Virus record (IMG/VR): IMGVR_UViG_2547132281_000009
Span: 1-28,155 of that record
Origin: a virus
Taxonomy: Duplodnaviria; Heunggongvirae; Uroviricota; Caudoviricetes
Reading direction: 5' to 3' (one strand)
DNA length: 28,155 nt
Position 1 is the stretch's first letter, and each line of letters starts with the position of its first letter. Positions 2,629-23,577 of this stretch are shown piece after piece. Made by a program: the position numbers and the translations under genes. The notes under the pieces were generated by a model. It searched no databases and was not told the origin of the DNA. It saw nothing but the letters and a program-made list of their open reading frames with translations.

Positions 2629-3282
2629 TCACTCTCCTTTGATGCGAATGCCAGCGTCAGACATCATATGCAGATACTCACCTGCATCCTGAACCCATTG
2701 ACCTCCAACCCCGTAATAGCGATGCGTAATGATGTCGATAGTTACTAACGGGTCTTGTTCGATTAACTGCCGCAGAAACTCTTCCAGGTCACCAGTGCAG
2801 TGCTTGATAACAGGAGTCTTCCCAGGATGGCGAACAACAAGAAACTGGTTTCCGTCTTCACGGACTTCGTTGCTTTCCAGTTTAGCAATACGCTTACTCC
2901 CATCCGAGATAACACCTTCGTAATACTCACGCTGCTCGTTGAGTTTTGATTTTGCTGTTTCAAGCTCAACACGCAGTTTCCCTACTGTTAGCGCAATATC
3001 CTCGTTCTCCTGGTCGCGAGATTTGATGTATTGCTGGTTTCTTTCCCGTTCATCCAGCAGCGCCTGCACTACTTCAGGGTTGAAAGCTGCGATATAACGA
3101 GCGTTGTTCTCTGCGTTGTTCTGTCCATCAAAGCCGGTCCATTTGATAACGTCTTCACATCGTTTATCACCAGGTGTATGCACCGCATATGTACCAGTAC
3201 CAGACGAAATAAATGCGACCCATTCACCCTGTGTTGCCAGTTGCGCCGCTTCACGCAGTGCCTGATAGTCAATCTTGTTCAT
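2629..3282 (-). CDS. Ead/Ea22-like early protein (217 aa)
   Basis: Central coiled-coil region and C-terminal ITHRYYGVGGQWVQ-type motif typical of Ead/Ea22-family proteins of lambdoid early-left regions (from memory). Confidence 0.55.
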   Translation of the reverse strand: MNKIDYQALREAAQLATQGEWVAFISSGTGTYAVHTPGDKRCEDVIKWTGFDGQNNAENNARYIAAFNPEVVQALLDERERNQQYIKSRDQENEDIALTVGKLRVELETAKSKLNEQREYYEGVISDGSKRIAKLESNEVREDGNQFLVVRHPGKTPVIKHCTGDLEEFLRQLIEQDPLVTIDIITHRYYGVGGQWVQDAGEYLHMMSDAGIRIKGE

Positions 3283-3283
3283 G

Positions 3284-3604
3284 TCACATCACCCTGAATC
3301 CGTTGCATTTACGTAAGAAATCGCAGATATAGCCCTTCATTTTTTCATGCCAATCTCGATCATTCCCATTGCACCAACCATCAGGTGGAGTCCAGTTTTC
3401 TATCAGAGCAGCCATTTTCTTTGCTTTCGCCGGAGTAGCTGTTGCGGTATCGCAGTAATGACGAGTGTCAACCAACGCATCCATACCATCGATATCAAGT
3501 ACGCAAAACCATGTGTGATTCGGAATTCCTACAGGTGGTATTTGTTGCCCACGTCGACGTTTATCAATAAGATATACACTCACTGCTTGCCTCCTTTGCG
3601 CCAC
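3284..3604 (-). CDS. Hypothetical protein (106 aa from a GTG start; alternative ATG at 3484 gives 66 aa)
   Basis: Long ORF in the early-left operon; start codon uncertain. Confidence 0.4.
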
Positions 3605-3747
3605 ATCGCATTCAGATATTTGTTTTGATTCACTGAAGGAAAAGAATTTCTCTTAAGCAATTCCTCTCTCGATGGCATTGGCTTTACGCGTTGGCGAATA
3701 ATCATTTCTGCCGGAAGAATGCCTGGATTGTATGCAAGTCCTCTCAT
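3580..3747 (-). CDS. Hypothetical small protein (55 aa)
   Basis: ATG at 3747 with GAGGAA Shine-Dalgarno 7 nt upstream; follows the stop of the upstream gene. Confidence 0.35.
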
Positions 3748-3757
3748 GGTAAATTCC

Positions 3758-4054
3758 TCAGTCATTACTGATAGCGCCATAGCGTGAGCGGTAATTACGC
3801 AGGCGCGGGTCGATATATTCAGGGAAGTGGGTATATGTGGCTTTGCGGAATGGTCGGATTGATGTCTGGTAAATTCGCTCGCGTTCTTCTTTCTCTGCAA
3901 GCCATATACAGTGGCGAAATTCCTTTTCCTCTTTCGTTTCCTGCGGTAGCGACATTATCCGGTCGTAGTTTTTCCTGAATTTATCCAGCACCTCCGATAC
4001 GGAATTGCCGGAACAGCGGCGCGGGTCATCCGCACCATACTGAGGCGCTGGCAT
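3758..4054 (-). CDS. Hypothetical protein (98 aa)
   Basis: ATG at 4054 with strong AGGAGA Shine-Dalgarno. Confidence 0.5.
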
Positions 4055-4067
4055 GATTTTCTCCTGA

Positions 4068-4547
4068 TTAAATTGCGTGAATAGCGTGACGAGGGAAGGG
4101 GAGAGTTACTGGCTCCTCGTCTGGGTAGATAGGTTTGTTATGTTTGTGCCACTCGACATGACATGACTTGCAGAGCCACATCACATCGGTTGGTTTGCTG
4201 TAGTCGCAGTGGTGCGCCTGTGGTTTACATTCTGATCCGCAGCACTCACATTGTGGTGGTCGGATTAGCTTACCGTCGCGCAAAAAATTACCCACGATGA
4301 TGTGGGCTTTTCTTTTCCATGGGTTGCTCTGAATGAACCGCTTTTTGGCTGCGTTACACCGTTCTCTGCCGCGTTCCGATGATTGATATTCTCTCCTTGC
4401 TGATACTCGATGTGGCAATCCCGCGCGCTCTTTGTCGTATTCAGCCAGGCAAGCCCGGCAAGCGGCAGTTAATCCATCTCTGGATGCTCTTCTGATTTGA
4501 AAGTCCCTTTCTTCCTTCTGTTGATGGCATCTTGAGCAGATTTTCAT
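4068..4547 (-). CDS. HNH-family endonuclease-like protein (159 aa)
   Basis: Multiple CxxC pairs and a C-terminal HH...LC..CH motif typical of the HNH zinc-finger nuclease fold; good Shine-Dalgarno. Confidence 0.6.
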   Translation of the reverse strand: MKICSRCHQQKEERDFQIRRASRDGLTAACRACLAEYDKERAGLPHRVSARREYQSSERGRERCNAAKKRFIQSNPWKRKAHIIVGNFLRDGKLIRPPQCECCGSECKPQAHHCDYSKPTDVMWLCKSCHVEWHKHNKPIYPDEEPVTLPFPRHAIHAI

Positions 4548-4556
4548 ATTCAGCTC

Positions 4557-5030
4557 CTAGAACGGAATATCCGAATCGTCGAAGTTCATAGGTGGTTCGC
4601 TGTGATTCCCCTGCTGCTGAGGTTGCTGTCTTTGTTGCTGACCGTTATTTCGCTGAGGTGAAGACTGTTCATTGCCTCCTTGCTTGCCACCAAGCATTTG
4701 CATGGTTCCACCAACGCCCACGATGACTTCGGTAGTGAACCGATCCTGTCCGCTTTGATCCTGCCATTTTCTTGTCCGCAATTTGCCTTCAAGATAAACC
4801 TCAGAGCCTTTTCGCAGATATTCGCTGGCAATTTCTGCCAGTTTCCCGCTCATTACCACACGGTGCCACTCCGTCTGCTCCTTTTGCTCTCCAGTTTGCT
4901 TATCACGCCATTGTTCTGACGTAGCAACTGTAAGGTTTGCAAATGCCGTTCCTGATGGTGAATATCTGATTTCTGGATCATGCCCAAGGCGACCAATAAT
5001 GATCACCTTATTTACGCCTCTGCTTGCCAT
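4557..5030 (-). CDS. ssb: Single-stranded DNA-binding protein (SSB), phage-encoded
   Basis: N-terminal OB-fold sequence [23 protein letters not shown], Gly/Gln-rich linker and acidic C-terminal tail DDSDIPF are diagnostic of bacterial/phage SSB. Confidence 0.9.
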
Positions 5031-5738
5031 TTATGCCGCCTGTTTTAGCTCGTTAACTCTGATGTTCATTACCTGAACGCATTTAGCCTGCGCCTCCTCG
5101 TTGCCAGCCATTAATTGCCAGTCACGCTGATAACGCTCGATGAGTTTTTTCTTGTCAGTTTCTGTTGACGCATAATCGCTGAAGTCTTTCAGGATTTGTT
5201 CGCAGTCAACCGATGGAGATTTCTGGTTGGTATTTTCTGGTGATGGTTTGTTATCTGATGCTGGGATTGCCCATCCCGGCAGCGATGGAGGGAGCCAGTA
5301 AAATCCTGTTCCATCCTTCAGTTTTGCCCTGTGCCACCCCTGCTTTTTATCGAGAGATGTTTGTGCGAAACCTTCCTCAAGGTTATACAGATACCGACCG
5401 ATTCCCCACTGAACGGCAGCGCGCTTCATTGCACCGGAACGACCACCTTTGACGGCTTCTACCTGCGTGTTTTCAGCAGCATCCCATTTGGTTACCCATT
5501 CGGAATCAATCTTTATTGATATGCCGCATTCAACGCCGCCGTTGTTGGGAATATCGCGGTATTCATTGCGCCATCCTGCTTTGCCGCAAACATCGTCCAG
5601 GCGCTTCATGATTGCCCGGTTCGTGACATAAGCCAGCACCATAGCCCACACCTTGCCATCGCGTGTTTTACCGCTTTGCTGTATTCGCCATTCGATATCT
5701 TCAGGGCTGAATGGCTCATCGAATTTATTCAAATCCAT
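5031..5738 (-). CDS. Single-strand annealing recombinase, Rad52/Erf-like (235 aa)
   Basis: Directly upstream of ssb in the position of lambdoid recombination genes; sequence resembles Rad52/22-type phage recombinases (from memory, not searched). Confidence 0.55.
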   Translation of the reverse strand: MDLNKFDEPFSPEDIEWRIQQSGKTRDGKVWAMVLAYVTNRAIMKRLDDVCGKAGWRNEYRDIPNNGGVECGISIKIDSEWVTKWDAAENTQVEAVKGGRSGAMKRAAVQWGIGRYLYNLEEGFAQTSLDKKQGWHRAKLKDGTGFYWLPPSLPGWAIPASDNKPSPENTNQKSPSVDCEQILKDFSDYASTETDKKKLIERYQRDWQLMAGNEEAQAKCVQVMNIRVNELKQAA

Positions 5739-5837
5739 AATTCACCTCAGAATGGACACGACCCAAGGAAATAACGCTGATTTAATACTTCGACTCGGGA
5801 CAAATTAAGGCATACCCGCATTCCTTCGCGGTCGCCA

Positions 5838-5996
5838 TTATGGCGATACCAGAGAGCTTTCTGCGTGTACATGCGTCTCTGTAACTTGCTCTCCTTCACT
5901 GTGGTTGCAAGTGACATGAATATCTCCTTCGTTACCGATTAAATCTTTCATTTGACGAATGAATTCTTCGTCTGACCAGTTATCTGTAAAACTCAT
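5838..5996 (-). CDS. Small protein in Kil position (52 aa), translationally coupled to cIII-like gene
   Basis: ATG overlaps the TGA of the upstream gene (ATGA); positional analogue of lambda kil. Confidence 0.4.
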   Translation of the reverse strand: MSFTDNWSDEEFIRQMKDLIGNEGDIHVTCNHSEGEQVTETHVHAESSLVSP

Positions 5997-6163
5997 GGAC
6001 GGCCTTGTTGTTTCAAAATATCCCAAAGCTTTTCGAGCAAACTTTTCATTCTTGGTTGTTTAAAGTCCGCTCCGGTTAAAATATTCTTTCGTGAATGCTG
6101 TACCGATAAAATCGGGTTGAAAGGGCGAACCGATGCCGCCCCTGCAATAGCGAACTGTTGCAT
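5993..6163 (-). CDS. CIII-like protease inhibitor (56 aa)
   Basis: Internal ATG at 6163 with AAGGAG Shine-Dalgarno; MQQFAIAG...SLLEKLWDILKQQG resembles lambda CIII (MQYAIAGW...); position between N and the recombination genes. Confidence 0.55.
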   Translation of the reverse strand: MQQFAIAGAASVRPFNPILSVQHSRKNILTGADFKQPRMKSLLEKLWDILKQQGRP

Positions 6164-6226
6164 AGGATGCTCCTTCTGTTTGATTGCATAACGAAAACGC
6201 CTCGAATGAAGCGTTATTGGTATGCA

Positions 6227-6906: not shown

Positions 6907-7239
6907 TCACCCCTCATACAGTGGTTTGCTGCCTAATTTCATTTTCTGGCGACCAACACAAGTCAACCCCATTTCACTACGTGGCTTGCTGTACCATGTG
7001 CGCTGATTCTTGCGCTCAATACGTTGCAGGTTGCTTTCAATCTGTTCGTGGTATTCAGCCAGCACTGTAAGGTCTATCGGATTCAGTGCGCTTTCTACTC
7101 GTGATTTCGGTTTGCGATTCAGCGAGAGAATAGGGCGGTTAACTGGTTTTGCGCTTACCCCAACCAACAGGGGATTTGCTGCTTTCCATTGAGCCTGTTT
7201 CTCTGCGCGACGTTCGCGGCGGCGTGTTTGTGCATCCAT
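6907..7239 (-). CDS. N: Antitermination protein N (lambda N-like, 110 aa)
   Basis: Translation begins MDAQTRRRERRAEKQAQWKAANPLLVGVSAKPVNRPILSLNRKPKSRVESALNPIDLTVLAEYH, matching lambda N including the arginine-rich motif; C-terminal ~25 aa differ. Confidence 0.9.
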   Translation of the reverse strand: MDAQTRRRERRAEKQAQWKAANPLLVGVSAKPVNRPILSLNRKPKSRVESALNPIDLTVLAEYHEQIESNLQRIERKNQRTWYSKPRSEMGLTCVGRQKMKLGSKPLYEG

Positions 7240-7482
7240 TTTATTCTCCTTTGAGCAACTTCATCGCTTCATCAATACGTGATTGTGTCCCTGCGTTTGG
7301 CTCCACTTCTTGAATTCGGCGAGCGTCCTCAAGGAGTTTCGCAATCATTTCTTTAAGCGCTTCGTTATTCATGGTCATTCTCCTGTCAGTTAGCTTTGAG
7401 TAACGCGCCGTGATGCTTATCTCCACGGTTGCTGTCTTGCAGCTGCATTTCGCGCTACTCAAAGCCTTCTGCTTTGAATGCT

Positions 7483-7513
7483 GCCCTTCTTCAGGGCTTA
7501 ATTTTTAAGAGCC
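7483..7513 (-). promoter_or_regulatory. nutL site (boxB hairpin GCCCTGAAGAAGGGC and boxA-like GCTCTTA)
   Basis: On the minus strand: ggctcttaaaaattaagccctgaagaagggc, the lambda nutL arrangement. Confidence 0.8.
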
Positions 7514-7553
7514 TCACCTTCAATGGTGGTTAGTGCGTCCTGCTGATGTGCTT

Positions 7554-7616
7554 AGTATCACCGCTAGTGGTATCTGTGTCAACACCGCCAGAGATAATTT
7601 ATCACCGCAGATGGTT
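7554..7616 (-). promoter_or_regulatory. pL promoter with OL1, OL2, OL3 operators
   Basis: Three 17-bp lambda-type operators (tatcaccgctagtggta 7556-7572, caacaccgccagagata 7580-7596, tatcaccgcagatggtt 7600-7616); minus-strand TTGACA (7577-7582), 17 bp, GATACT (7554-7559). Confidence 0.85.
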
Positions 7617-7770
7617 ATCTGTATGTTTTTTATATAGATTTATTTTTTTTGCAGGGGGGGCTTGGGAGGTGATCGAGAGATCTGAATTGCGATGTTTAGT
7701 GAGTTGTATCTATTAATTTTCAAATAAATACAATTGGTTATGTGTTATTGGTTGAAGGGGATCGTGAGGC

Positions 7771-7800
7771 AAAGAAAACCCGGCGCTGAGGCCGGGTTGT
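7771..7800 (-). terminator. Rho-independent terminator ending the cI operon (tImm-like)
   Basis: Stem cccggc/gccggg (7779-7796) with 6-nt loop, followed on the minus strand by TTTTCTTT; sequence matches the lambda terminator distal to rexB as I recall it. Confidence 0.75.
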
Positions 7801-7803
7801 ATA

Positions 7804-8676
7804 TTATTTAATTTCTTTTTCCGGTAAATACATTGTCATTTGAACAGGTTTCTTTCCATAGTGTTGAGCAACTCGACTTCTTAGCTCATGCATGGTGTCG
7901 CATGTTTTTGCGACCCCAATAACCTCCCAGCACCTTGATACAAGCTGCCTTACACCTAGGTTCTCGGTTAACTGTCTATGCCAGTGAACTCCTGCCGCAG
8001 GCTTGTTTTCTTTAAGATATTTAGCCACATCTTCGTCAAGAGTGTCATAAATTAACTCTATAACTAATTTCCCCCACCATTTGGGCCTTGATTGCAATGG
8101 GGTACTCCATCCTGTCAATCTACCAAATTCTTCCCATAACTCATCAGGAAATGTTTTTTCCCATGCTCTTAGTTCCTCAGCGATGAACGCCCTGAGTTTT
8201 ACTTGGAGAGCATCCTCTGCGCGCTCATACTGATACCCAGTAGCCTCATCAATTAGAGCATCTAACCCAGTCCTGGTTAAACCTGCTGTTAATACAGCAC
8301 ATTTAATTGCTATTTCTCGCTGTCTATCTGTCAATGGCGCGCCTTTGTATAGCGCCTGTACATAGCCGCGACAAATCAATTCAAATTGCTCAGTCTTAAG
8401 TCCTTGGCTCTTAAATTGGGTTCCTGGTATGGAAAACTCTATGAGTTCGGCCAGGACTAAGTCTTTGTCTATAAAGCCATTAAGTGAGCTAACGCCAATA
8501 AATTTAGCCAGGTCTCCTGACTCCGCATTGGCAATTGCTTTTACAGTTGCTCGCAAAGCTATAACACGATGTCCAGTGTCAAGCACATAGCAATCAATAC
8601 TTTCACCACCTAAGTCGATCTTCCCCTTCCATTTTGCGAATGGGGATGGTAATTGCTGTAAATCATCATGTTCCAT
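7804..8676 (-). CDS. Unknown-family protein (~290 aa) in the rexAB slot downstream of cI; candidate exclusion/defence gene
   Basis: Long ORF co-oriented with cI; start most likely the ATG at 8676 (AAGGG upstream, 32 nt after cI stop); the ORF-track start at 8772 would overlap the cI coding sequence by 65 bp; no transmembrane segment; no similarity to RexA/RexB. Confidence 0.6.
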   Translation of the reverse strand: MEHDDLQQLPSPFAKWKGKIDLGGESIDCYVLDTGHRVIALRATVKAIANAESGDLAKFIGVSSLNGFIDKDLVLAELIEFSIPGTQFKSQGLKTEQFELICRGYVQALYKGAPLTDRQREIAIKCAVLTAGLTRTGLDALIDEATGYQYERAEDALQVKLRAFIAEELRAWEKTFPDELWEEFGRLTGWSTPLQSRPKWWGKLVIELIYDTLDEDVAKYLKENKPAAGVHWHRQLTENLGVRQLVSRCWEVIGVAKTCDTMHELRSRVAQHYGKKPVQMTMYLPEKEIK

Positions 8677-8707
8677 TAATTGAATTACCCTTTTTTGCTG
8701 CGTTGAA

Positions 8708-9424
<717 letters not shown>

Positions 9425-9431
9425 TTAAATC

Positions 9432-9497
9432 TATCACCGCAAGGGATAAATATCTAACACCGTGCGTGTTGACTATTTTACCTCTAGCGGTGATAAT
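9432..9497. promoter_or_regulatory. OR3-OR2-OR1 operators with divergent pRM and pR promoters
   Basis: tatcaccgcaagggata (9432-9448), taacaccgtgcgtgttg (9455-9471), tacctctagcggtgata (9479-9495); pR TTGACT (9469-9474), 17 bp, GATAAT (9492-9497); cro Shine-Dalgarno AGGAGG. Confidence 0.9.
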
Positions 9498-9512
9498 GGT
9501 TGCATGTACTAA

Positions 9513-9722
<210 letters not shown>

Positions 9723-9729
9723 ATAACCA

Positions 9730-9761
9730 CGCTCTTACACATCCCAGCCCTGAAAAAGGGC
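9730..9761 (+). promoter_or_regulatory. nutR site (boxA CGCTCTTA, boxB GCCCTGAAAAAGGGC), followed by the tR1 region
   Basis: cgctcttacacatcccagccctgaaaaagggc immediately after the cro stop, as in lambda. Confidence 0.85.
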
Positions 9762-9840
9762 ATCAAATTAAACCACACCTATGGTGTATGCATTTATTTG
9801 CATACATTCAATCAATTGTTATCTAAGGAAATACTTACAT

Positions 9841-10134
9841 ATGGTTCGTGCAAACAAACGCAACGAGGCTCTACGAATCGAGAGTGCGTTGCTTAACAAA
9901 ATCGCAATGCTTGGAACTGAGAAGACAGCGGAAGCTGTGGGAGTTGATAAGTCGCAGATCAGCAGGTGGAAGAGGGACTGGATTCCAAAGTTCTCAATGC
10001 TGCTTGCTGTTCTTGAATGGGGTGTCGTTGACGACGACATGGCTCGATTGGCACGACAAGTTGCAGCGATTCTCACCAATAAAAAACGCCCGGCGGCAAC
10101 CGAGCGTTCTGAACAAATCCAGATGGAATTCTGA
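9841..10134 (+). CDS. cII: CII transcriptional activator (lambda CII-like, 97 aa)
   Basis: [73 protein letters not shown]... matches lambda CII; the ORF-track N-terminal extension from 9781 is upstream read-through. Confidence 0.95.
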
Positions 10135-10166
10135 GGTCATTACTGGATCAATCCACAGGAGTCATT

Positions 10167-10313
10167 ATGACAAAACAACTCAGTCCTTACCAGGACAAAA
10201 TTCACAAACACATACTACGTGATCGCTTCCTGTCCAGCTTCAAGCAGCCTGGTCGATTCCGGGCTGAGTTGGAAAAAGTGAAGCTGATGCAGAAGGAGAA
10301 AGGTCATGAGTAA
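10167..10313 (+). pseudogene. Truncated 48-codon ORF at the position of the replication-initiator (O-like) gene; probable remnant at a deletion junction
   Basis: Starts with the lambda O-type initiation context aggagtcattATGACAAA right after cII, then stops after 48 codons; gp10 follows 113 bp later. Confidence 0.3.
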
Positions 10314-10426
10314 CATATCTAATCTATCCAAACCGTATGCCTGTTGGTAGCGGTAACCAGTTGGCGAAGTGGAACGGTTGGAATTACTTCCACCGGAAGG
10401 AACCTTGCGATAACGGGAGCGAATAA

Positions 10427-11845
10427 ATGCCGATTCAGCAACTTCCGCTTATGAAAGGTGTCGGCAAAGACTTTCGAAACGCCGACTATATCGACTATCT
10501 GCCAGTGAATATGTTGGCTACACCCAAAGAAATCCTGAACAGCAGCGGATATCTTCGCTCATTCCCGGGCATTGCCAAACGTTCTGATGTGAACGGAGTA
10601 TCGCGAGGCGTCGAGTACAACATGGCGCAGAATGCTGTTTATCGCGTGTGTGGTGGCAAGCTGTACAAAGGAGAAAGTGAAGTCGGTGACGTCGCCGGAA
10701 GTGGTCGTGTATCAATGGCGCATGGTCGGACATCACAGGCGGTAGGTGTTAATGGTCAACTGGTCGAGTATCGCTATGATGGAACGGTTAAAACCGTCTC
10801 AAACTGGCCTACAGACAGCGGATTCACGCAGTATGAGTTAGGTTCTGTTCGTGACATTACGCGCTTACGCGGGCGTTATGCGTGGTCAAAAGACGGCACT
10901 GATTCATGGTTTATCACTGACCTTGAAGACGAATCGCATCCTGACAGATACAGTGCACAATATCGTGCCGAGTCTCAGCCTGACGGTATTATCGGCATCG
11001 GAACATGGCGAGACTTCATCGTCTGCTTTGGTTCATCGACGATTGAATATTTCTCCCTGACTGGTGCAACCACAGTTGGTGCTGCTTTGTATGTCGCACA
11101 GCCATCGCTGATGGTGCAAAAAGGCATCGCCGGGACTTACTGCAAAACGCCGTTTGCTGATTCCTATGCGTTTATCAGCAATCCGGCAACGGGTGCGCCG
11201 TCTGTATACATTATCGGCTCCGGTCAGGTGTCACCAATCGCCAGCGCGAGCATTGAGAAAATTCTCCGCTCCTACACTGCTGATGAACTGGCTGATGGTG
11301 TGATGGAGTCTCTGCGATTTGATGCGCATGAGCTGCTGATTATCCACCTTCCGCGCCATGTTCTCGTGTACGACGCATCTTCAAGCGCCAATGGTCCGCA
11401 ATGGTGTGTGTTGAAAACTGGCTTGTATGACGATGTGTACCGCGCTATCGACTTCATTTACGAAGGCAATCAGATAACGTGCGGCGATAAGCTGGAATCG
11501 GTTACCGGCAAATTGCAGTTCGATATCAGCAGCCAGTACGACAAGCAACAGGAACACCTGCTGTTTACTCCACTGTTCAAAGCGGATAACGCCAGAGTTT
11601 TCGACCTTGAGGTTGAATCGTCAACTGGCGTTGCGCAGTATGCTGACCGCCTTTTTCTCTCTGCAACCACTGACGGCATCAATTACGGGCGTGAGCAGAT
11701 GATTGAGCAGAATGAACCGTTCGTTTACGACAAACGCGTTTTGTGGAAGCGAGTAGGGCGCATCAGGAAAAATGTCGGCTTCAAATTGCGCGTTATCACG
11801 AAGTCACCTGTCACTCTGTCTGGCTGCCAGATAAGGATTGAGTAA
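10427..11845 (+). CDS. P22 gp10-like tail accessory (head-completion/tail hub) protein, 472 aa
   Basis: [48 protein letters not shown]... matches P22 gp10 over its length and size (from memory). Confidence 0.85.
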
Positions 11846-17831: not shown

Positions 17832-18380
17832 TTAGTGTAATCTCTGATCGTCTGAATCGTGTAAGAACTCCATGAGACTTTGAACCGGAATTGGTTCTAT
17901 TGATGATAATGTGAACACAGGAATATTGAGACTTTTGCAACGCTCAAACACTCCCTTATCATGAGTCCATACCTCGTCAGCATTAATTGCTCTTGCAATT
18001 GCTATTATTTGTCTGTCAAACTTAATTTTGTTTGCTGTACCTTCTGTGCTAATTTTCCTTAATTCTTTTAATGTTGGTATCGATGCGCATTCAATAGCAG
18101 CCAACTCATCAAATGATACAGTTTCGAAGCACGATAACGATTTGATAACATTCAGTTTTTCTTGTTGGTAATCTTTATGGATTCCAACTAAAAACTCCGC
18201 CAATACAGGAGTTGGAACGATGATTGTCCCGTTCTTGTTATCTATTCGATCAACAAGAGCTTCTGCTCTTCTTTTGGCATCTGGAATCTCAGAACCAAGT
18301 ATAGGGTCAGATAATCTATAATCGTGTTCTATATCTGATAGTAGGTATACCAGAATATTGGTATCTAAAATTACTCGCAA
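17832..18380 (-). CDS. PIN-domain nuclease-like protein (182 aa)
   Basis: N-terminal MRVILDTNILVYLL with the conserved Asp in the first strand, further acidic residues and a C-terminal WTHD motif, consistent with a PIN fold; TTG start with AGGAAG Shine-Dalgarno, overlapping the upstream stop by 10 nt. Confidence 0.7.
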   Translation of the reverse strand: MRVILDTNILVYLLSDIEHDYRLSDPILGSEIPDAKRRAEALVDRIDNKNGTIIVPTPVLAEFLVGIHKDYQQEKLNVIKSLSCFETVSFDELAAIECASIPTLKELRKISTEGTANKIKFDRQIIAIARAINADEVWTHDKGVFERCKSLNIPVFTLSSIEPIPVQSLMEFLHDSDDQRLH

Positions 18381-19090
18381 TTTATCTTCCTCAGAGTCCT
18401 AAGGATTGAATCAACATCGCGTTCCTCGGACCACTGATCTCCAGGAACTTGCTTGATAGCATTAATAGCATCCTTGAGTGATGATTTTTTGAGCAATACA
18501 AATGAAGTTATTTTTAGTTTCTTTAGCTCCCATTTGTTGTTCTTTTTTTCCCAGCACCCATCTCCTTTAACCCTAATATATTTGAATAGATGGGACCCAA
18601 GAGCTGCCGCCAAATCAGGGGTTGCCTCGCACTTGAATGTTTCACCGTTGGCTCCCTCAATACGCACAGGTATTGAGTTGTCTTTTCCGCCAACACTGTA
18701 TAGCCTTCCTTGAACTTCTGACGTTTTTGTTATGAGTAAAGGGATTGGCTCCTTTTTTACTCGCGGGAATGCGATAATGGTTGAGTGGTTTCGTCCGAGT
18801 AGTTTCGCTGAAAAACCATCATGCTCCAGTAAATTAACAATTTTTTGATACGCGGGTGATTTCTCTTTGGCTGAGAGAGAGGCCCTTGCTATGACAGCGT
18901 TATAACAAATATCATTATCGACCCATGCATTTAAGTCAGCCGATCCTTCACTTACACAGTCGAAGTGAACAGAATCTGCAGAACCGTATAGATCTACGAG
19001 AGCAGACATATACTTGACCAACTTAGCCATTGACAGCTGGCCAGGGGTGGTTCCGTCAAGTTTTAATGTGAGTCCATTGCTTTTTTTCAT
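18371..19090 (-). CDS. Unknown-family protein (239 aa), upstream partner of the PIN-domain gene
   Basis: ATG at 19090; stop overlaps the PIN start (operon); AT-rich; no recognisable motif, no P-loop, no transmembrane segment. Confidence 0.65.
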   Translation of the reverse strand: MKKSNGLTLKLDGTTPGQLSMAKLVKYMSALVDLYGSADSVHFDCVSEGSADLNAWVDNDICYNAVIARASLSAKEKSPAYQKIVNLLEHDGFSAKLLGRNHSTIIAFPRVKKEPIPLLITKTSEVQGRLYSVGGKDNSIPVRIEGANGETFKCEATPDLAAALGSHLFKYIRVKGDGCWEKKNNKWELKKLKITSFVLLKKSSLKDAINAIKQVPGDQWSEERDVDSILRTLRKINCE

Positions 19091-19139: not shown

Positions 19140-19394
19140 CTATAACTTACTTTTGCTATAAATATTTTTCAGCGTTTCAAAGACCATCTTCTTAACAACG
19201 TCAGATTGCTCATCCGCGACTCGCTCAGCTTCGTCTCGATAGCCTACAATTGATGATGGCTTTGAGAGAGCATCCTGAACGATTTGTAATAACTCAGAGT
19301 TCATTGACCTTCCGTTAGCCTCGGCTCTTAATTTCAATTTTTCTCTTACTTCCAAAGGCATACGGAAGTTAAAGTGCGGATCATCTCTAGCCAT
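19140..19394 (-). CDS. mnt: Mnt repressor (P22 Mnt-like, ribbon-helix-helix)
   Basis: MARDDPHFNFRMPLEVREKLKLRAEANGRSMNSELLQIVQDALSKPS... closely matches P22 Mnt as I recall it. Confidence 0.85.
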   Translation of the reverse strand: MARDDPHFNFRMPLEVREKLKLRAEANGRSMNSELLQIVQDALSKPSSIVGYRDEAERVADEQSDVVKKMVFETLKNIYSKSKL

Positions 19395-19417
19395 GCCATC
19401 ACTCCAAGTTAGTATCT

Positions 19418-19675
19418 CTAACTTTCGTCTTTATTGTTGCCATACATGCATTTCAACTTCTCAACATCATGTTCAAGATCTATCAATCGTGATGCTATAG
19501 TTGCAAGGTCTAGTGCTTGAATGTGTTTATTTTTTTCGGTCCATGCTTCAAGTGCAGCGACCATCTCAGCATTTAATGAACGAGAATTAGCCTCAGCCAG
19601 TTCAATAAGACGTTCCTTTATCTCTACAGGAAGCCTCAGATTCACTTGAGGGTTTTTGTACTTACGATCAGACAT
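19418..19675 (-). CDS. Second ribbon-helix-helix (Arc/Mnt-family) repressor-like protein (85 aa)
   Basis: NLRLPVEIKERLIELAEANSRSLNAEMVAAL is an RHH fold signature; probable ATG start at 19675 (the ORF-track GTG is at 19681). Confidence 0.6.
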   Translation of the reverse strand: MSDRKYKNPQVNLRLPVEIKERLIELAEANSRSLNAEMVAALEAWTEKNKHIQALDLATIASRLIDLEHDVEKLKCMYGNNKDES

Positions 19676-19721
19676 CGGCACACCCTGAATAATTTTTTAC
19701 CACAGGATATGTAGGTGTCTA

Positions 19722-19761
19722 TTGACTATCAATGCGTACCTAAATACTATGTATGCGTACC
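19722..19761 (+). promoter_or_regulatory. Pant-like promoter (TTGACT, 17 bp, TACTAT) with flanking direct repeats ATGCGTACC (19732-19740, 19753-19761), candidate Arc/Mnt operators
   Basis: Consensus-like -35/-10 with 17-bp spacing upstream of arc; a 9-bp direct repeat brackets the -10 at 21-bp periodicity. Confidence 0.5.
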
Positions 19762-19780
19762 ACATACAGCGGAGGATGCA

Positions 19781-19921
19781 ATGAAGGTAAAAACACTGCG
19801 TATGCCAGAGAAGTTAGAAAAAATCCTTGAAGAGAAAGCAAAGGAAGAGTGTCGATCGTTTAGCGCAGAAGTAATTAAACGGGTGCTGGACAGCTTGAAG
19901 AGAGAGGGGGTGATGGTATGA
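19781..19921 (+). CDS. arc: Arc-like ribbon-helix-helix repressor (46 aa)
   Basis: ATG at 19781 with GGAGGA Shine-Dalgarno; MKVKTLRMPEKLEKILEEKAKEECRSFSAEVIKRVLDSLKREG resembles P22 Arc; first gene of the arc-ant operon. Confidence 0.7.
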   Translation: MKVKTLRMPEKLEKILEEKAKEECRSFSAEVIKRVLDSLKREGVMV

Positions 19922-20184: not shown

Positions 20185-20485
20185 ATGACGAGTGTAGCAA
20201 TTGCAGAACATACAATCAACGTTCCATTCCACGGAACAAATCTCTTTTTGGTCAGCATTAACAATGAACCTTACGTTCCTATGAAACCCGTTGTAGAAGG
20301 CATGGGTATGGTTTGGGCTGCTCAATTTGTTAAATTAAAACAGAGATTTGTCAAAGGTATTTCGGAAATCGAAATACCTTCTGCTGGCGGTAAACAGTTA
20401 ATGATATGCCTTGCCTTTCGTAAGTTTGCGGCTTGGCTTTCAAGCATTCAGCCAAACAAAGTCCGTCCTGAAATCCGCGACAAGG
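20185..20485 (+). pseudogene. ant: Antirepressor Ant, N-terminal part (AntA-type domain), interrupted by IS insertion
   Basis: AntA-like N-terminal domain (VPFHGTNLFLV...EPYVPMKPVVEGMGM); reading frame runs into the IS at 20486 and resumes in frame at 22928. Confidence 0.75.
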
Positions 20486-20556
20486 GTAAGCGTACAGCCT
20501 GAACCGTCTGGTCAGAATCTGACAAATTAGACAAAGTGGTGTCCACCAAATAAGTA

Positions 20557-20958
20557 GTGGGAACCAAAGTGTCAGATATGCAGAAAAATGTGACTCCCGG
20601 CAGGCGAAAAGGCTGCCCTAATTATCCTCCCGAATTTAAACAGCAGCTCGTTGCTGCCTCCTGTGAACCCGGGATATCCATCTCAAAACTTGCTCTTGAA
20701 AATGGCATTAACGCCAATCTGTTGTTCAAATGGCGACAACAATGGCGCGAGGGAAAGCTGCTATTACCTTCTTCAGAGAGCCCCCAGCTACTTCCTGTGA
20801 CTCTCGATGCAGCTGCCGAACAGCCAGAATCGCTCGCAGAGGACCCGGAAACCCTCAGTATCAGCTGTGAGGTAACGTTCCGGCACGGGACGCTCCGCTT
20901 CAATGGCAATGTCAGCGAAAAGCTCCTGACTCTGCTGATACAGGAACTGAAGCGATGA
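20557..20958 (+). CDS. IS66-family accessory protein TnpA (orf1)
   Basis: First ORF of the IS; typical IS66 orfA sequence. Confidence 0.8.
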   Translation: MGTKVSDMQKNVTPGRRKGCPNYPPEFKQQLVAASCEPGISISKLALENGINANLLFKWRQQWREGKLLLPSSESPQLLPVTLDAAAEQPESLAEDPETLSISCEVTFRHGTLRFNGNVSEKLLTLLIQELKR

Positions 20959-21302
20959 TCCCGTTACCTTCCGGGACCAAAATTTGGCTGGTTGCCGGTA
21001 TCACCGATATGAGAAATGGCTTCAACGGCCTGGCTGCGAAAGTACAAACGGCGCTGAAAGACGATCCCATGTCCGGCCATGTTTTCATTTTCCGGGGCCG
21101 CAGCGGCAGTCAGGTTAAACTGCTGTGGTCCACCGGTGACGGACTGTGCCTCCTGACCAAACGGCTGGAGCGTGGGCGCTTCGCCTGGCCGTCAGCCCGT
21201 GATGGCAAAGTGTTCCTTACGCAGGCGCAGCTGGCGATGCTGCTGGAAGGTATCGACTGGCGACAGCCCAAGCGGTTGCTGACCTCCCTGACCATGCTGT
21301 AA
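20955..21302 (+). CDS. IS66-family accessory protein TnpB (orf2)
   Basis: Overlaps the orf1 stop (ATGA); [31 protein letters not shown] is the conserved IS66 orf2 N-terminus. Confidence 0.85.
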
Positions 21303-21351
21303 ATCTCTTTATCCTGGTTGTCACAGAATAAGCCCGGTAAAATACGGGCTT

Positions 21352-22890
21352 ATGAACGACATCTCTTCTGACGACATCTTCCTGCTGAAACAGCGCCTGG
21401 CCGAACAGGAAGCGCTGATCCACGCCCTGCAGGAAAAGCTGAGCAACCGGGAGCGCGAAATAGACCATCTGCAGGCGCAGCTGGATAAACTCCGCCGGAT
21501 GAACTTCGGCAGTCGTTCCGAAAAAGTCTCCCGCCGTATCGCACAAATGGAAGCCGATCTGAACCGGCTTCAGAAAGAGAGCGATACGCTGACTGGTAGG
21601 GTGTATGACCCGGCTGTACAGCGTCCGTTGCGTCAGACCCGCACCCGTAAGCCGTTCCCTGAATCACTACCCCGTGACGAAAAGCGACTGTTGCCTGCGG
21701 CGCCGTGCTGCCCGAACTGCGGCGGTTCACTGAGCTATCTGGGCGAGGATACCGCCGAACAGCTGGAGTTGATGCGTAGTGCCTTCCGGGTTATCCGGAC
21801 GGTACGGGAAAAACATGCCTGTACTCAGTGCGATGCCATCGTGCAGGCACCTGCACCTTCGCGGCCCATCGAGCGGGGTATCGCCGGACCGGGGCTGCTG
21901 GCCCGCGTGCTGACCTCGAAGTATGCAGAGCACACCCCGCTGTATCGCCAGTCAGAAATATACGGCCGGCAAGGTGTGGAGCTGAGCCGTTCACTGCTGT
22001 CGGGCTGGGTGGATGCATGCTGCCGGCTGCTGTCTCCGCTGGAAGAGGCGCTTCATGGCTATGTCATGACTGACGGCAAACTCCATGCCGATGATACCCC
22101 GGTCCAGGTACTGCTGCCGGGTAATAAGAAGACGAAGACCGGGCGGTTGTGGGCGTATGTTCGTGATGACCGCAATGCCGGGTCAGCGTTGGCACCTGCA
22201 GTGTGGTTCGCTTACAGCCCGGACAGAAAAGGCATCCATCCGCAGACTCATCTTGCCTGCTTCAGCGGTGTGCTGCAAGCGGATGCGTACGCCGGGTTCA
22301 ACGAGCTGTATCGCAATGGTGGGATAACGGAAGCTGCCTGCTGGGCTCATGCCCGCCGAAAGATCCACGATGTGCACGTCCGCATCCCGTCAGCACTGAC
22401 GGAAGAAGCCCTGGAGCAGATCGGTCAGTTGTACGCCATAGAGGCGGATATAAGGGGAATGCCGGCAGAGCAGCGGCTTGCTGAACGTCAGCGAAAAACG
22501 AAACCGCTGTTGAAATCCCTGGAAAGCTGGTTGCGTGAAAAGATGAAAACCCTGTCGCGACACTCAGAACTGGCGAAAGCGTTCGCATACGCCCTGAACC
22601 AGTGGCCGGCGCTGACGTACTATGCAGATGATGGCTGGGCTGAGGCGGACAATAACATCGCTGAAAATGCGTTGCGGATGGTCAGTCTGGGCCGCAAAAA
22701 CTACCTGTTCTTCGGTTCGGATCATGGAGGAGAGCGGGGAGCGCTGCTGTACAGCCTGATCGGGACGTGCAAACTGAACGGAGTGGAGCCAGAAAGCTAC
22801 CTCCGCTATGTCCTTGACGTCATAGCCGACTGGCCGATAAACCGGGTCGGCGAACTGCTCCCCTGGCGCGTAGCACTGCCGACTGAATAA
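21352..22890 (+). CDS. IS66-family transposase TnpC (orf3), 512 aa
   Basis: N-terminal leucine-zipper region, CxxC...CxxC zinc motif and C-terminal DDE-type core characteristic of IS66 transposases. Confidence 0.9.
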
Positions 22891-22927
22891 CACATCCCCG
22901 TCAATACGGTTCTTGCTGCACGCTTAC

Positions 22928-23558
22928 CGACAAGGTAATCCAGTATCAGGAAGAGTGTGACGATGTGCTCTACGAGTACTGGACTAAAGGTCATGTAGTT
23001 AACCCACGCAAAGCTAAAAAAGCGTTGCCGGGTAAAATCACCACTGAACAGCAGGAAGCCATTAAACAACTCGTCATGAGTCGCGGTCAGTCTCTACCAA
23101 AAGAAAAACAGGCTAAGGCGATGATCACCATGTGGTCGTCACTGAAATCTCATTTTGGGTGTTCATACAAAGAAATCAGTGAGGAGCAGTTTACCGAAGC
23201 ACTGTCACTTGCTGCTCGCGTTCCGCTCGAAGGTGAGTTCATCGGCAAACAAGAGAAGAAAACCAACGAGCTTTCTGCAAAAGAAGCAAACAGCCTTGTA
23301 TGGTTATGGGATTATGCCAACCGCTCACAGGCATTATTCCGCGAACTGTATCCGGCGCTAAAACAAATTCAATCGAACTATTCCGGCAGATGTCATGACT
23401 GCGGTTATGAGTTCTCCCGTATTATCGATATGGCGAGAGATGTTTTAATCAACCACACACGAGATGTTGATATCAATGAGCCAGACGGACCAACGAATCT
23501 TTCCGCATGGATGAGACTTAAGAATAAAGAATTACCTCCTTCAGTACATAACTACTGA
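22928..23558 (+). pseudogene. ant: Antirepressor Ant, C-terminal part, downstream of the IS insertion
   Basis: In frame with the N-terminal part once the IS and one target-duplication copy are removed (2450 bp); combined length ~308 aa, similar to P22 Ant. Confidence 0.7.
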
Positions 23559-23577
23559 CAGATAACCAACGCAACGA

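Follow-up and report, generated by a model that had tools for sequence, protein, structure and literature searches.

A P63C-family gene in place of rexAB behind a lambda-type cI, with relatives in phage immunity operons and insertion sequences

Introduction

What takes the place of rexA and rexB in a prophage that keeps lambda immunity without them, and what could the replacement do? The question is raised by a stretch of DNA of 28,155 nucleotides (IMG/VR virus record IMGVR_UViG_2547132281_000009, Caudoviricetes, positions 1 to 28,155; this whole stretch is called the window below), which is 100% identical to part of the chromosome of Escherichia coli TW14425 (NZ_CP127265.1, about 3,628,137-3,656,291), a strain from human stool in Guinea-Bissau. 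An earlier note, made from the letters without database searches, had drawn attention to positions 7804-8676, where a single gene lies directly downstream of cI. It proposed a cassette swap in the rexAB position and implied that the new gene, like the old ones, serves exclusion of other phages. The analysis described here shows that rexA and rexB have been exchanged in this prophage for one gene of the P63C family, and considers what the relatives of that gene suggest about its role.

A single gene between cI and the timm terminator

Alignment to lambda placed the breakpoints of the swap exactly where the earlier note had put them. By blastn, the DNA on the cI side (window 8707-10174) aligns with lambda 37226-38693 at 97.6% and that on the timm side (window 7460-7798) with lambda 35496-35826 at 90.4%; similarity stops one base past the cI stop codon (8707) and restarts at the first base of the timm terminator hairpin (7798). 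The lambda counterpart of the DNA in between is 35827-37225, 1399 bp that hold rexB, rexA and the cI-rexA spacer. The features of the locus are the following.

7799-8706, minus strand: substituted segment of 908 bp, without similarity to lambda by blastn
7804-8676, minus strand: P63C-family gene, 290 residues, ATG at 8676, TAA at 7804-7806
8677-8707, minus strand: spacer of 31 nt from the cI stop to the P63C start, with a Shine-Dalgarno-like AAGGG
8708-9421, minus strand: cI repressor gene, 237 residues, lying upstream of the P63C gene in one leftward transcription unit
9432-9495: OR3 (9432-9448), OR2 (9455-9471) and OR1 (9479-9495), with pRM and pR, placed by alignment to lambda
7777-7798, minus strand: intrinsic terminator hairpin equivalent to lambda timm, AACCCGGCCTCAGCGCCGGGTT followed by TTCTTT
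7554-7616, minus strand: lambda-like OL3 (7600-7616), OL2 (7580-7596) and OL1 (7556-7572)
7577-7582 and 7554-7559, minus strand: pL, TTGACA and GATACT
7483-7497, minus strand: nutL boxB hairpin GCCCTGAAGAAGGGC, unchanged from lambda and located upstream of N
6907-7239, minus strand: N gene

As the earlier note had it, the flanks are near-identical to lambda. The repressor matches lambda cI at 233 of 237 residues, the OR region is that of lambda apart from a single G>A at 9486 in OR1, pR matches its consensus at 9469-9497, and the DNA from timm through OL and pL to nutL is 93% identical. The timm hairpin is unchanged from lambda; it begins 5 nt past the P63C stop codon and marks the distal breakpoint. 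Two details of these flanks may be recorded separately. The four residues that distinguish this cI from that of lambda are T3A, K71N, V131I and Q201H. An equivalent G>A occurs at the same operator position in OR1 (9486) and OL1 (7565), giving TACCTCTaGCGGTGATA and TACCACTaGCGGTGATA, and this paired change could be a co-adapted operator variant.

One open reading frame (ORF) occupies 7799-8706. Its ATG at 8676 is preceded by AAGGG eleven bases upstream and aligns with the initiator methionine of the homologues in Salmonella phage SI8 and in a Klebsiella prophage, whose upstream genes differ; the SI8 annotation likewise favours this start, which gives 290 residues. Two longer versions were rejected, namely ATG 8772 (322 residues), which overlaps cI, and the TTG at 8715 chosen by RefSeq/PGAP (303 residues), which overlaps cI by 8 bases; neither extension has a counterpart among homologues. 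To judge from these alignments, the RefSeq product WP_000342823.1 is probably too long by 13 residues at its N-terminus.

Between cI and the P63C gene neither a promoter consensus nor a terminator was found, nor any minus-strand terminator-like site in the spacer 8677-8707. Only a transcript reading through from cI can reach the gene ahead of the conserved terminator, and the protein should therefore be made from the cI transcript. By homology with lambda, a cI-P63C transcript would be produced from pRM in lysogens and from pRE at establishment, and would end at timm.

The junctions themselves are found in other phages. The SI8 group comprises Salmonella P22-like phages with a repressor that differs from the window cI but has a similar end. 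Common to the window, the SI8-group phages and the Klebsiella prophage are the last repressor codons, a portion of the spacer and the hairpin of the terminator (AACCCGGCC..GCCGGGTT), and the two edges of the swap are judged not to be random. The spacer resembles in part the repressor-P63C junctions of SI8 and of the Klebsiella prophage, and both keep the timm hairpin 3' of the gene. Similarity between the window and sequences of the phage database ends at the same two breakpoints (59% coverage). Given these common flanks, the 3' end of the repressor gene and timm, it is concluded that the cassette travels between phages by recombination there; recombination in conserved flanks is the usual route by which lambdoid mosaics form. 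Among complete E. coli genomes the cassette is present in 11 of 5426, and the other ten copies are 99.7-100% identical at the nucleotide level.

Membership and conservation of the P63C family

The protein had been assigned to no known family in the earlier note, and here the description has to be corrected. Residues 161-245 score 79.8 bits with Pfam P63C (PF10546; E 2.3e-22), for which the cut-off is 26.1; the protein also matches PHROG 2384 over its full length (E 1.3e-86, residues 6-287), and RefSeq names it a 'P63C domain-containing protein' (WP_000342823.1); function alone lacks an assignment. PF10546 takes its name from p63 of Myxococcus phage Mx8. Both the Pfam and the PHROG entry are listed as families of unknown function, and the more than 5000 relatives are all labelled only 'P63C domain-containing' or 'hypothetical'. 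NCBIfam, PADLOC (5027 defence models) and the sequences of the PDB gave no match for the 290-residue protein, and a Pfam scan up to E 1 gave none to Bro-N (PF02498), KilA-N or Ski_Sno.

Conservation was assessed in an alignment of 89 sequences that spans 26-89% identity. The invariant residues are L32, G92, G137, A140-L141, D143-E-A-T-G147, F176, P198, G202, Y210 and G241, every one of which is present in the window protein. Most prominent is the motif G137..ALxDEATG147 followed by YQ..R152, and further conservation is seen at F176/P177, R186/L187, P198, G202 and Y210. Identity to the window protein is 90% in the SI8 group, 84% in a metagenome-assembled genome (MAG) of Caldilineaceae assigned to Chloroflexi, 83.5% in Paracoccus phage Pkon1, 73-82% in Pseudomonas, Burkholderiales, Rhodobacterales and Acetobacteraceae, 55-64% in Firmicutes, Actinobacteria and Cyanobacteria, and 41-50% in Planctomycetes, Bacteroidetes, Acidobacteria and Saccharibacteria. 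Among the homologues compared over their full length by sequence, the range is from 28% (L0095 of phage 933W) to 90% (SI8).

The SI8 copy is 90% identical in amino acids but only 77% in nucleotides, with a nonsynonymous divergence (dN) of 0.08 and a saturated synonymous divergence (dS); across the family comparisons dN is 0.08-0.35 and dS is again saturated. The saturated synonymous sites and the 77% nucleotide identity to SI8 imply that the high protein identity is not the result of recent transfer. On these comparisons the P63C family is judged to be evolving very slowly, under strong purifying selection. The gene in the window is real, intact and under strong constraint.

A variable feature of the family lies at the N-terminus. 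Many P63C proteins, the window protein not among them, begin with a basic motif, KGG-x-ARA-x2-L(S/T)-x-E-x-R-x-EIAR-x-A-x2-ARW. Extensions of this type are seen in 933W L0095 and in the homologues of phage SPN9CC and Gordonia, and in some genomes the motif forms a separate small upstream ORF (loci L062, 4468-4710, and L073, 4323-4667).

Predicted structure

An AlphaFold model was built from the 89-sequence alignment, with a mean predicted local distance difference test score (pLDDT) of 81.5. It describes a soluble protein in two parts. An alpha/beta domain at the N-terminus spans approximately residues 13-110, and the remaining two-thirds, which contain the DEATG motif and the Pfam P63C domain, are helical. 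Together with the family scans, the model agrees with the earlier description of one soluble protein of about 290 residues unrelated to RexA or RexB.

The best PDB match of residues 13-110 is the DHD domain of human SKI (Foldseek probability 0.97, E 0.027). Matches to predicted viral structures were weak in score and uniform in annotation: Mx8 p63 itself and dozens of Bro-N proteins from phages, baculoviruses, ascoviruses and entomopoxviruses. By its modelled fold, which resembles the Bro-N and Dachshund types with weak scores, the N-terminal domain is probably a Bro-N/Dachshund-like, DNA-binding module. The C-terminal module of Bro-N and DHD proteins differs from that of the P63C protein. The fold search gave no convincing structural relative for the C-terminal part, only noise such as helical membrane proteins and 14-3-3, and a PDB search with the single sequence returned no relative. 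A profile match over residues of about 210-250 to IBP39, a winged-helix initiator-binding protein, was rejected as insignificant (E 0.57).

Some family members add an N-terminal helix-turn-helix (HTH) domain of the Cro/YdaS type. One such fusion, a P63C protein of 366 residues, is encoded four genes upstream of a DUF4238 protein (locus L022, 4001-7755); DUF4238 is reported to be a phage-defence gene from P2/P4 hotspots.

Other occupants of the cI-N interval

Owen et al. (2021; PMC8585504) describe the interval between cI and N as an established hotspot of mosaic diversity, with reference to Degnan et al. (2007). Wild phages of lambda immunity in GenBank with other genes in this slot are HK244, HK542, HK544, mEp332, mEp234/HK106, where hicAB occupies it, and CL707. 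The immunity-region records EF120455-EF120461 combine a lambda-type cI and operators with unrelated genes instead of rexAB, and no P63C gene is found in the slot of these phages. In E. coli genomes with a lambda-type cI, the slot holds rexAB or genes for KilA-N, NYN+PIN, DUF1828, DUF2335, HicAB or DUF6932 proteins; a part in conflict is established or likely for rexAB, KilA-N, NYN+PIN and HicAB. The exchange of rexAB for something else is thus ordinary and not unusual.

The P63C gene shares with lambda rexAB its place, from cI to timm/OL, and presumably its transcription with cI. The products are different: lambda has two proteins, of which RexB is a membrane protein, whereas the window has one soluble protein without sequence or family relation to either. 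The possibility of a diverged RexA, which the earlier note had raised against its own view, was rejected together with that of a diverged RexB, since there is no Rex match in Pfam, NCBIfam or PADLOC, the gene is single, and its DNA has no similarity to lambda 35827-37225.

A likeness in layout is also offered by BstA of the Salmonella prophage BTP1 (PMC8585504), a single-protein abortive-infection system in the same slot. Its gene, for about 300 residues, comes directly after that of the repressor and has a terminator behind it. BstA has a putative DNA-binding alpha/beta domain at its N-terminus and a second domain at its C-terminus, and is found in prophages of many bacteria. It shares the repressor promoter, and the window gene, 31 nt past cI on the same strand, would likewise share that of cI. 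Homology between the two was rejected: BLASTP gave E 1.6, and hhalign, run with the 89-sequence P63C profile against a 38-sequence BstA profile, gave a probability of 0.86% and E 0.064, the only aligned stretch being a non-significant pairing of the two N-terminal domains. BstA has a Pfam family of its own (PF26567, for the C-terminal domain) and diverges much faster than P63C; in the same kind of search its homologues beyond the closest clusters are at 48-55% identity and mostly from Enterobacterales.

The reading that is tentatively preferred here, with a probability judged to be somewhat short of even, is that the P63C protein would be lysogen-expressed cargo, a DNA-binding protein directed against rival elements that enter the cell. 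The soluble, two-part product would bind DNA through its N-terminal domain, whose Bro-N/Dachshund-type fold is associated with such binding, while the C-terminal part would contribute a very strongly conserved helical module with the DEATG motif. The effect would be superinfection exclusion or abortive infection, similar in action to BstA or RexAB and unrelated to them by descent.

Family members beside phage repressors

The earlier note had recommended a survey of other lambdoid prophages for the gene after cI. P63C genes that follow the immunity repressor gene directly and in the same orientation were found in phages and prophages alike. The phages are SI8 and SPN9CC of Salmonella, Midgardsormr38 of Erwinia, Kuwabara of Gordonia and Javan515 of Streptococcus; the prophages are from S. 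pyogenes M1, Klebsiella, Pseudomonas chlororaphis and Delftia. The carriers thus span phages of Proteobacteria, Firmicutes and Actinobacteria. A cI-like gene is the immediate upstream neighbour on the same strand in 18 of 77 IMG/VR viral loci and lies within three genes in 24 of them; when only the 25 loci with the nearest relatives of the window protein are counted, it lies within three genes in 16. A random gene of a 60-gene phage would be expected next to the repressor at a rate of roughly 1 in 60. The counts are lower bounds, obtained with an ORF caller that is crude in high-GC DNA and with an iterative search seeded by cI, which recognizes only cI-like repressors.

In several proteobacterial prophages (L024, at 2908-3818, L112, L125 and L137), two unannotated genes of about 195 and 100 residues recur between an S24 repressor and the P63C gene. 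These might form a larger unit with P63C.

A different position is seen in Shiga toxin (Stx) phages of the 933W type, where a distant homologue (28% identity) lies not after the repressor but in the nin region, an early region where its neighbours are genes for restriction alleviation and methyltransferases. This company bears on a second explanation, in which P63C is a counter-defence or host-takeover factor that aids a newly arrived element, for example by blocking a conserved function of the host or of a rival. Such a factor would fit the extremely broad host range of the family and its near-identical sequence across hosts, and also the GC content of the copies, which lies below the usual value for several host genera, as for travelling DNA. 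An anti-defence gene would, however, not usually be sought in the repressor operon, where a quiescent prophage expresses it all the time; at 290-350 residues and two domains the proteins are larger than typical inhibitors, and no similarity to known anti-defence proteins appears in the PHROGs or Pfam annotation. A counter-defence role is accordingly considered improbable.

Family members inside IS1595 and IS1 elements

A survey of bacterial genomes, with one genome per species, gave 78 loci with a P63C gene. In 24 of them the neighbour is a transposase of the insertion sequence (IS) family IS1595, recognized by Pfam DDE_Tnp_IS1595 and a zinc ribbon. The P63C start overlaps the stop of this transposase gene by 4-8 bp in 15 loci (by exactly 8 bp in 13), and in three more it lies within 4 nt of it. 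In loci without an IS1595 transposase, 11 neighbour ORFs match the IS1 transposase model, and in seven loci an IS1-family transposase is the immediate, divergent upstream gene. No other type of transposon was found among the neighbours. P63C is carried in three gene arrangements across only two, related, IS families. Divergence of P63C against that of the linked transposase (Spearman 0.08, 171 pairs) is uninformative, as the identities saturate.

Complete units of 1.9-2.7 kb can be delimited in which both genes lie inside terminal inverted repeats, with perfect 8-bp target duplications outside (L026, L028, L029, L032, L034, L038, L104, L057, L081 and L058). Alphaproteobacteria are one source of the P63C-bearing units, and MAGs placed in several other groups are another. 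Units with their repeats and duplications are these.

L032, 2976-4965: inverted repeats 25/25, target duplication AAAAAAAC
L029, 3897-5910: inverted repeats 24 nt, 92%, target duplication AAAAATAA
L028, 3891-5902: inverted repeats 24/26, target duplication TTAAATTG
L104, 2621-4550: inverted repeats 28/28, target duplication ATCATCAA
L057, IS1-like, 3786-6193: inverted repeats 19/19, target duplication TTGAATCG
L081, IS1-like, 3820-6209: inverted repeats 20/20, target duplication TGGGGGAG
L058, divergent IS1595, 3361-6062: inverted repeats 25/26, target duplication TTTATGTT

IS-borne copies include the closest non-enterobacterial relatives of the window protein, at up to 80-82% identity, the value varying with the alignment. 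On the evidence of these sequences P63C is a recurrent passenger or accessory gene of insertion sequences. Insertion sequences of the IS1595 family are reported to carry passenger genes; most IS1595 and IS1 elements of ISfinder are not known to carry a P63C gene.

The window copy differs from these in standing without transposase or IS ends, embedded in a phage immunity operon. No IS1595 or IS1 transposase is annotated in the 42-kb stretch that contains the window, where the sole IS is an IS66 element in ant, and no sequence resembling the IS inverted repeats occurs in the window at up to 3 mismatches. Non-lambda DNA amounts to only 5 nt and 31 nt on the two sides of the ORF. An IS remnant around the gene was accordingly rejected.

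The IS units support a third explanation, almost as likely as exclusion, in which P63C serves the DNA transactions of the element that carries it, binding DNA as an accessory factor or as a regulator. In IS1595 and IS1 elements it could modulate transposition, and in phages it could help to establish or stabilize lysogeny; made together with cI from pRE and pRM, it could act there on integration, replication or silencing. The adjacency to IS1595 transposases, the start/stop overlaps, the IS1 neighbours and the complete units enclosing both genes in only two related families all agree with such a factor. So does the proximity of integrase genes in several phages, those of Gram-positive hosts among them: the gene order in the Streptococcus prophages is repressor, P63C, integrase, in Gordonia phage Kuwabara an HTH gene stands between the P63C gene and the integrase gene, and in Burkholderia phage DC1 the P63C gene adjoins the integrase gene. 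Very slow evolution, like that of a housekeeping gene, would fit contact with DNA or with universal host machinery, the Bro-N-type domain and the HTH fusions would fit a regulator, and the family is absent from defence islands and catalogues. Against this explanation, the phage copies work without an IS1595 or IS1 transposase, none being present in the window, and if most such elements indeed lack P63C, neither partner needs the other. The three gene arrangements resemble repeated capture of cargo, the lambdoid slot otherwise holds dispensable conflict genes, and the gene has been kept in a prophage unable to replicate or excise productively.

The host prophage and its surroundings

The prophage in the window is P22-like, adjoins tRNA-Arg and yfdC, and combines an IntS/TorI integration module with lambda immunity. 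It is defective: a large part of its interior has been deleted, and an IS66 element has inserted into ant. Rightward of the immunity region the order is the following.

9841-10134: cII
10167-10313: DUF2740 gene
10314-10427: deletion junction, where the DUF2740 gene is followed directly by a gp4 remnant and then by gp10
10325-10426: last ~100 bases of a P22 gp4-family gene
10427-11845: gp10

Gone are the genes for replication and lysis, nin and Q, and those for terminase, portal, scaffold and coat. Measured against the related prophage of E. coli EC28 (L185), the missing span is about 15 kb. The EC28 prophage occupies another chromosomal site, keeps the replication, nin, lysis and head genes, and encodes an identical cI-adjacent P63C protein (WP_000342823.1). 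The P63C gene of TW14425 is intact despite the loss of replication, lysis and head genes.

A fourth explanation is neutral carriage: the gene would have no current function in this strain and would persist only as a remnant that accompanies cI while the prophage decays. The defects of the prophage and the rarity of the gene among E. coli genomes speak for it. The ORF is, however, intact and of full length, the other E. coli copies are nearly or fully identical to it, purifying selection is strong throughout the family, and cI, the operators and the terminator are intact too. Neutral carriage is therefore regarded as very improbable.

Further genes of the region are of separate interest. A complete IS66-family element interrupts the P22-type antirepressor gene ant (20185-23559), and the three Arc-family regulator genes upstream of ant are intact (19140-19921). 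The genes of the element are these.

20591-20959: tnpA
20956-21303: tnpB
21353-22891: tnpC

A PIN-domain gene of 182 residues (17832-18380, minus strand) overlaps an unannotated gene of 239 residues (18371-19090, minus strand). On one side of the pair are the DNA-ejection genes and on the other the Arc/Mnt immI region, a place where an accessory or toxin-type pair is typically found, and PADLOC gave no match for either gene (17832-19090). To the left of the prophage, the sucrose-utilization genes cscK and cscB are annotated pseudogenes with internal stops.

just upstream of window base 1: cscK
1-870: 3' part of cscB
1013-1102: DUF4942 gene remnant, preceding torI

Functional implications

The preferred reading, exclusion of incoming elements by lysogen-expressed cargo, draws on the slot itself, on the company of genes found in that slot, on recurrence after repressors in phages of three phyla, on the autonomy of the gene and on its retention in a dead prophage. 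Carriage by two IS families in three arrangements implies a self-contained function. A benefit to the host would account for retention in the repressor operons of several phyla and for carriage as a passenger of IS1595 and IS1 elements.

Several observations weigh against it. The exclusion function implied by the earlier note was plausible from position only, and it is weakened by the IS and Stx nin-region habitats: the overlap with the transposase gene in the 15 loci, and the near-contact in the three others, suggests co-production and perhaps a role in the DNA transactions of the element, and the 933W-type homologue would be expressed in lytic growth. In bacterial genomes the gene is found mainly next to transposase and housekeeping genes and not in defence islands; housekeeping neighbours are what a transposon would be expected to have. 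Among 132 ORFs adjacent to homologues no clear enrichment of known defence genes was seen, only isolated cases of PDC-S02, DndB, a methylase and PD-T4-2_B. None of the PADLOC defence models matches the protein. Its conservation is atypical of proteins engaged in an arms race, with about 80% identity between E. coli and alphaproteobacterial copies against 48-55% for BstA. Transcription of the gene from pRM is inferred from lambda. In the searchable literature, no paper or experiment on the function of any P63C protein was found, the sole relevant mention being a network link in a paper on a Paracoccus phage.

A bolder version of the preferred reading goes further: P63C would be a very widespread single-gene, DNA-binding system against phages or mobile elements, missed by all defence catalogues. 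Its carriers would be of two unrelated kinds, temperate phages, with the gene in the repressor operon in at least three phyla, and IS1595 and IS1 elements, which would be the first insertion sequences known to carry defence; its N-terminal domain would be the prokaryotic counterpart of the Ski/Dachshund domain of animals. Taken as a whole, this version is rather unlikely. Replacement of rexAB by cassettes and the name of the P63C family are known already. What appears to be undescribed so far is a deeply conserved family common to immunity operons across phyla and to IS1595 and IS1 elements, with an instance behind lambda cI.

The family combines three unusual traits, namely a constant position after immunity repressors, carriage by active-looking insertion sequences and a conservation beyond that usual for mobile-element genes, with about 80% identity across bacterial classes at saturated silent sites. 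The P63C gene is a good candidate for a new mobile-element conflict gene, and one that is easily tested in E. coli, as it is short, encodes a soluble product and stands behind the best-understood phage promoter. If it proves to be a defence gene, it would add a new single-protein system and mean that small insertion sequences can ferry immunity; if it proves to aid transposition or lysogeny, it would be an unrecognized accessory factor common to phages and transposons.

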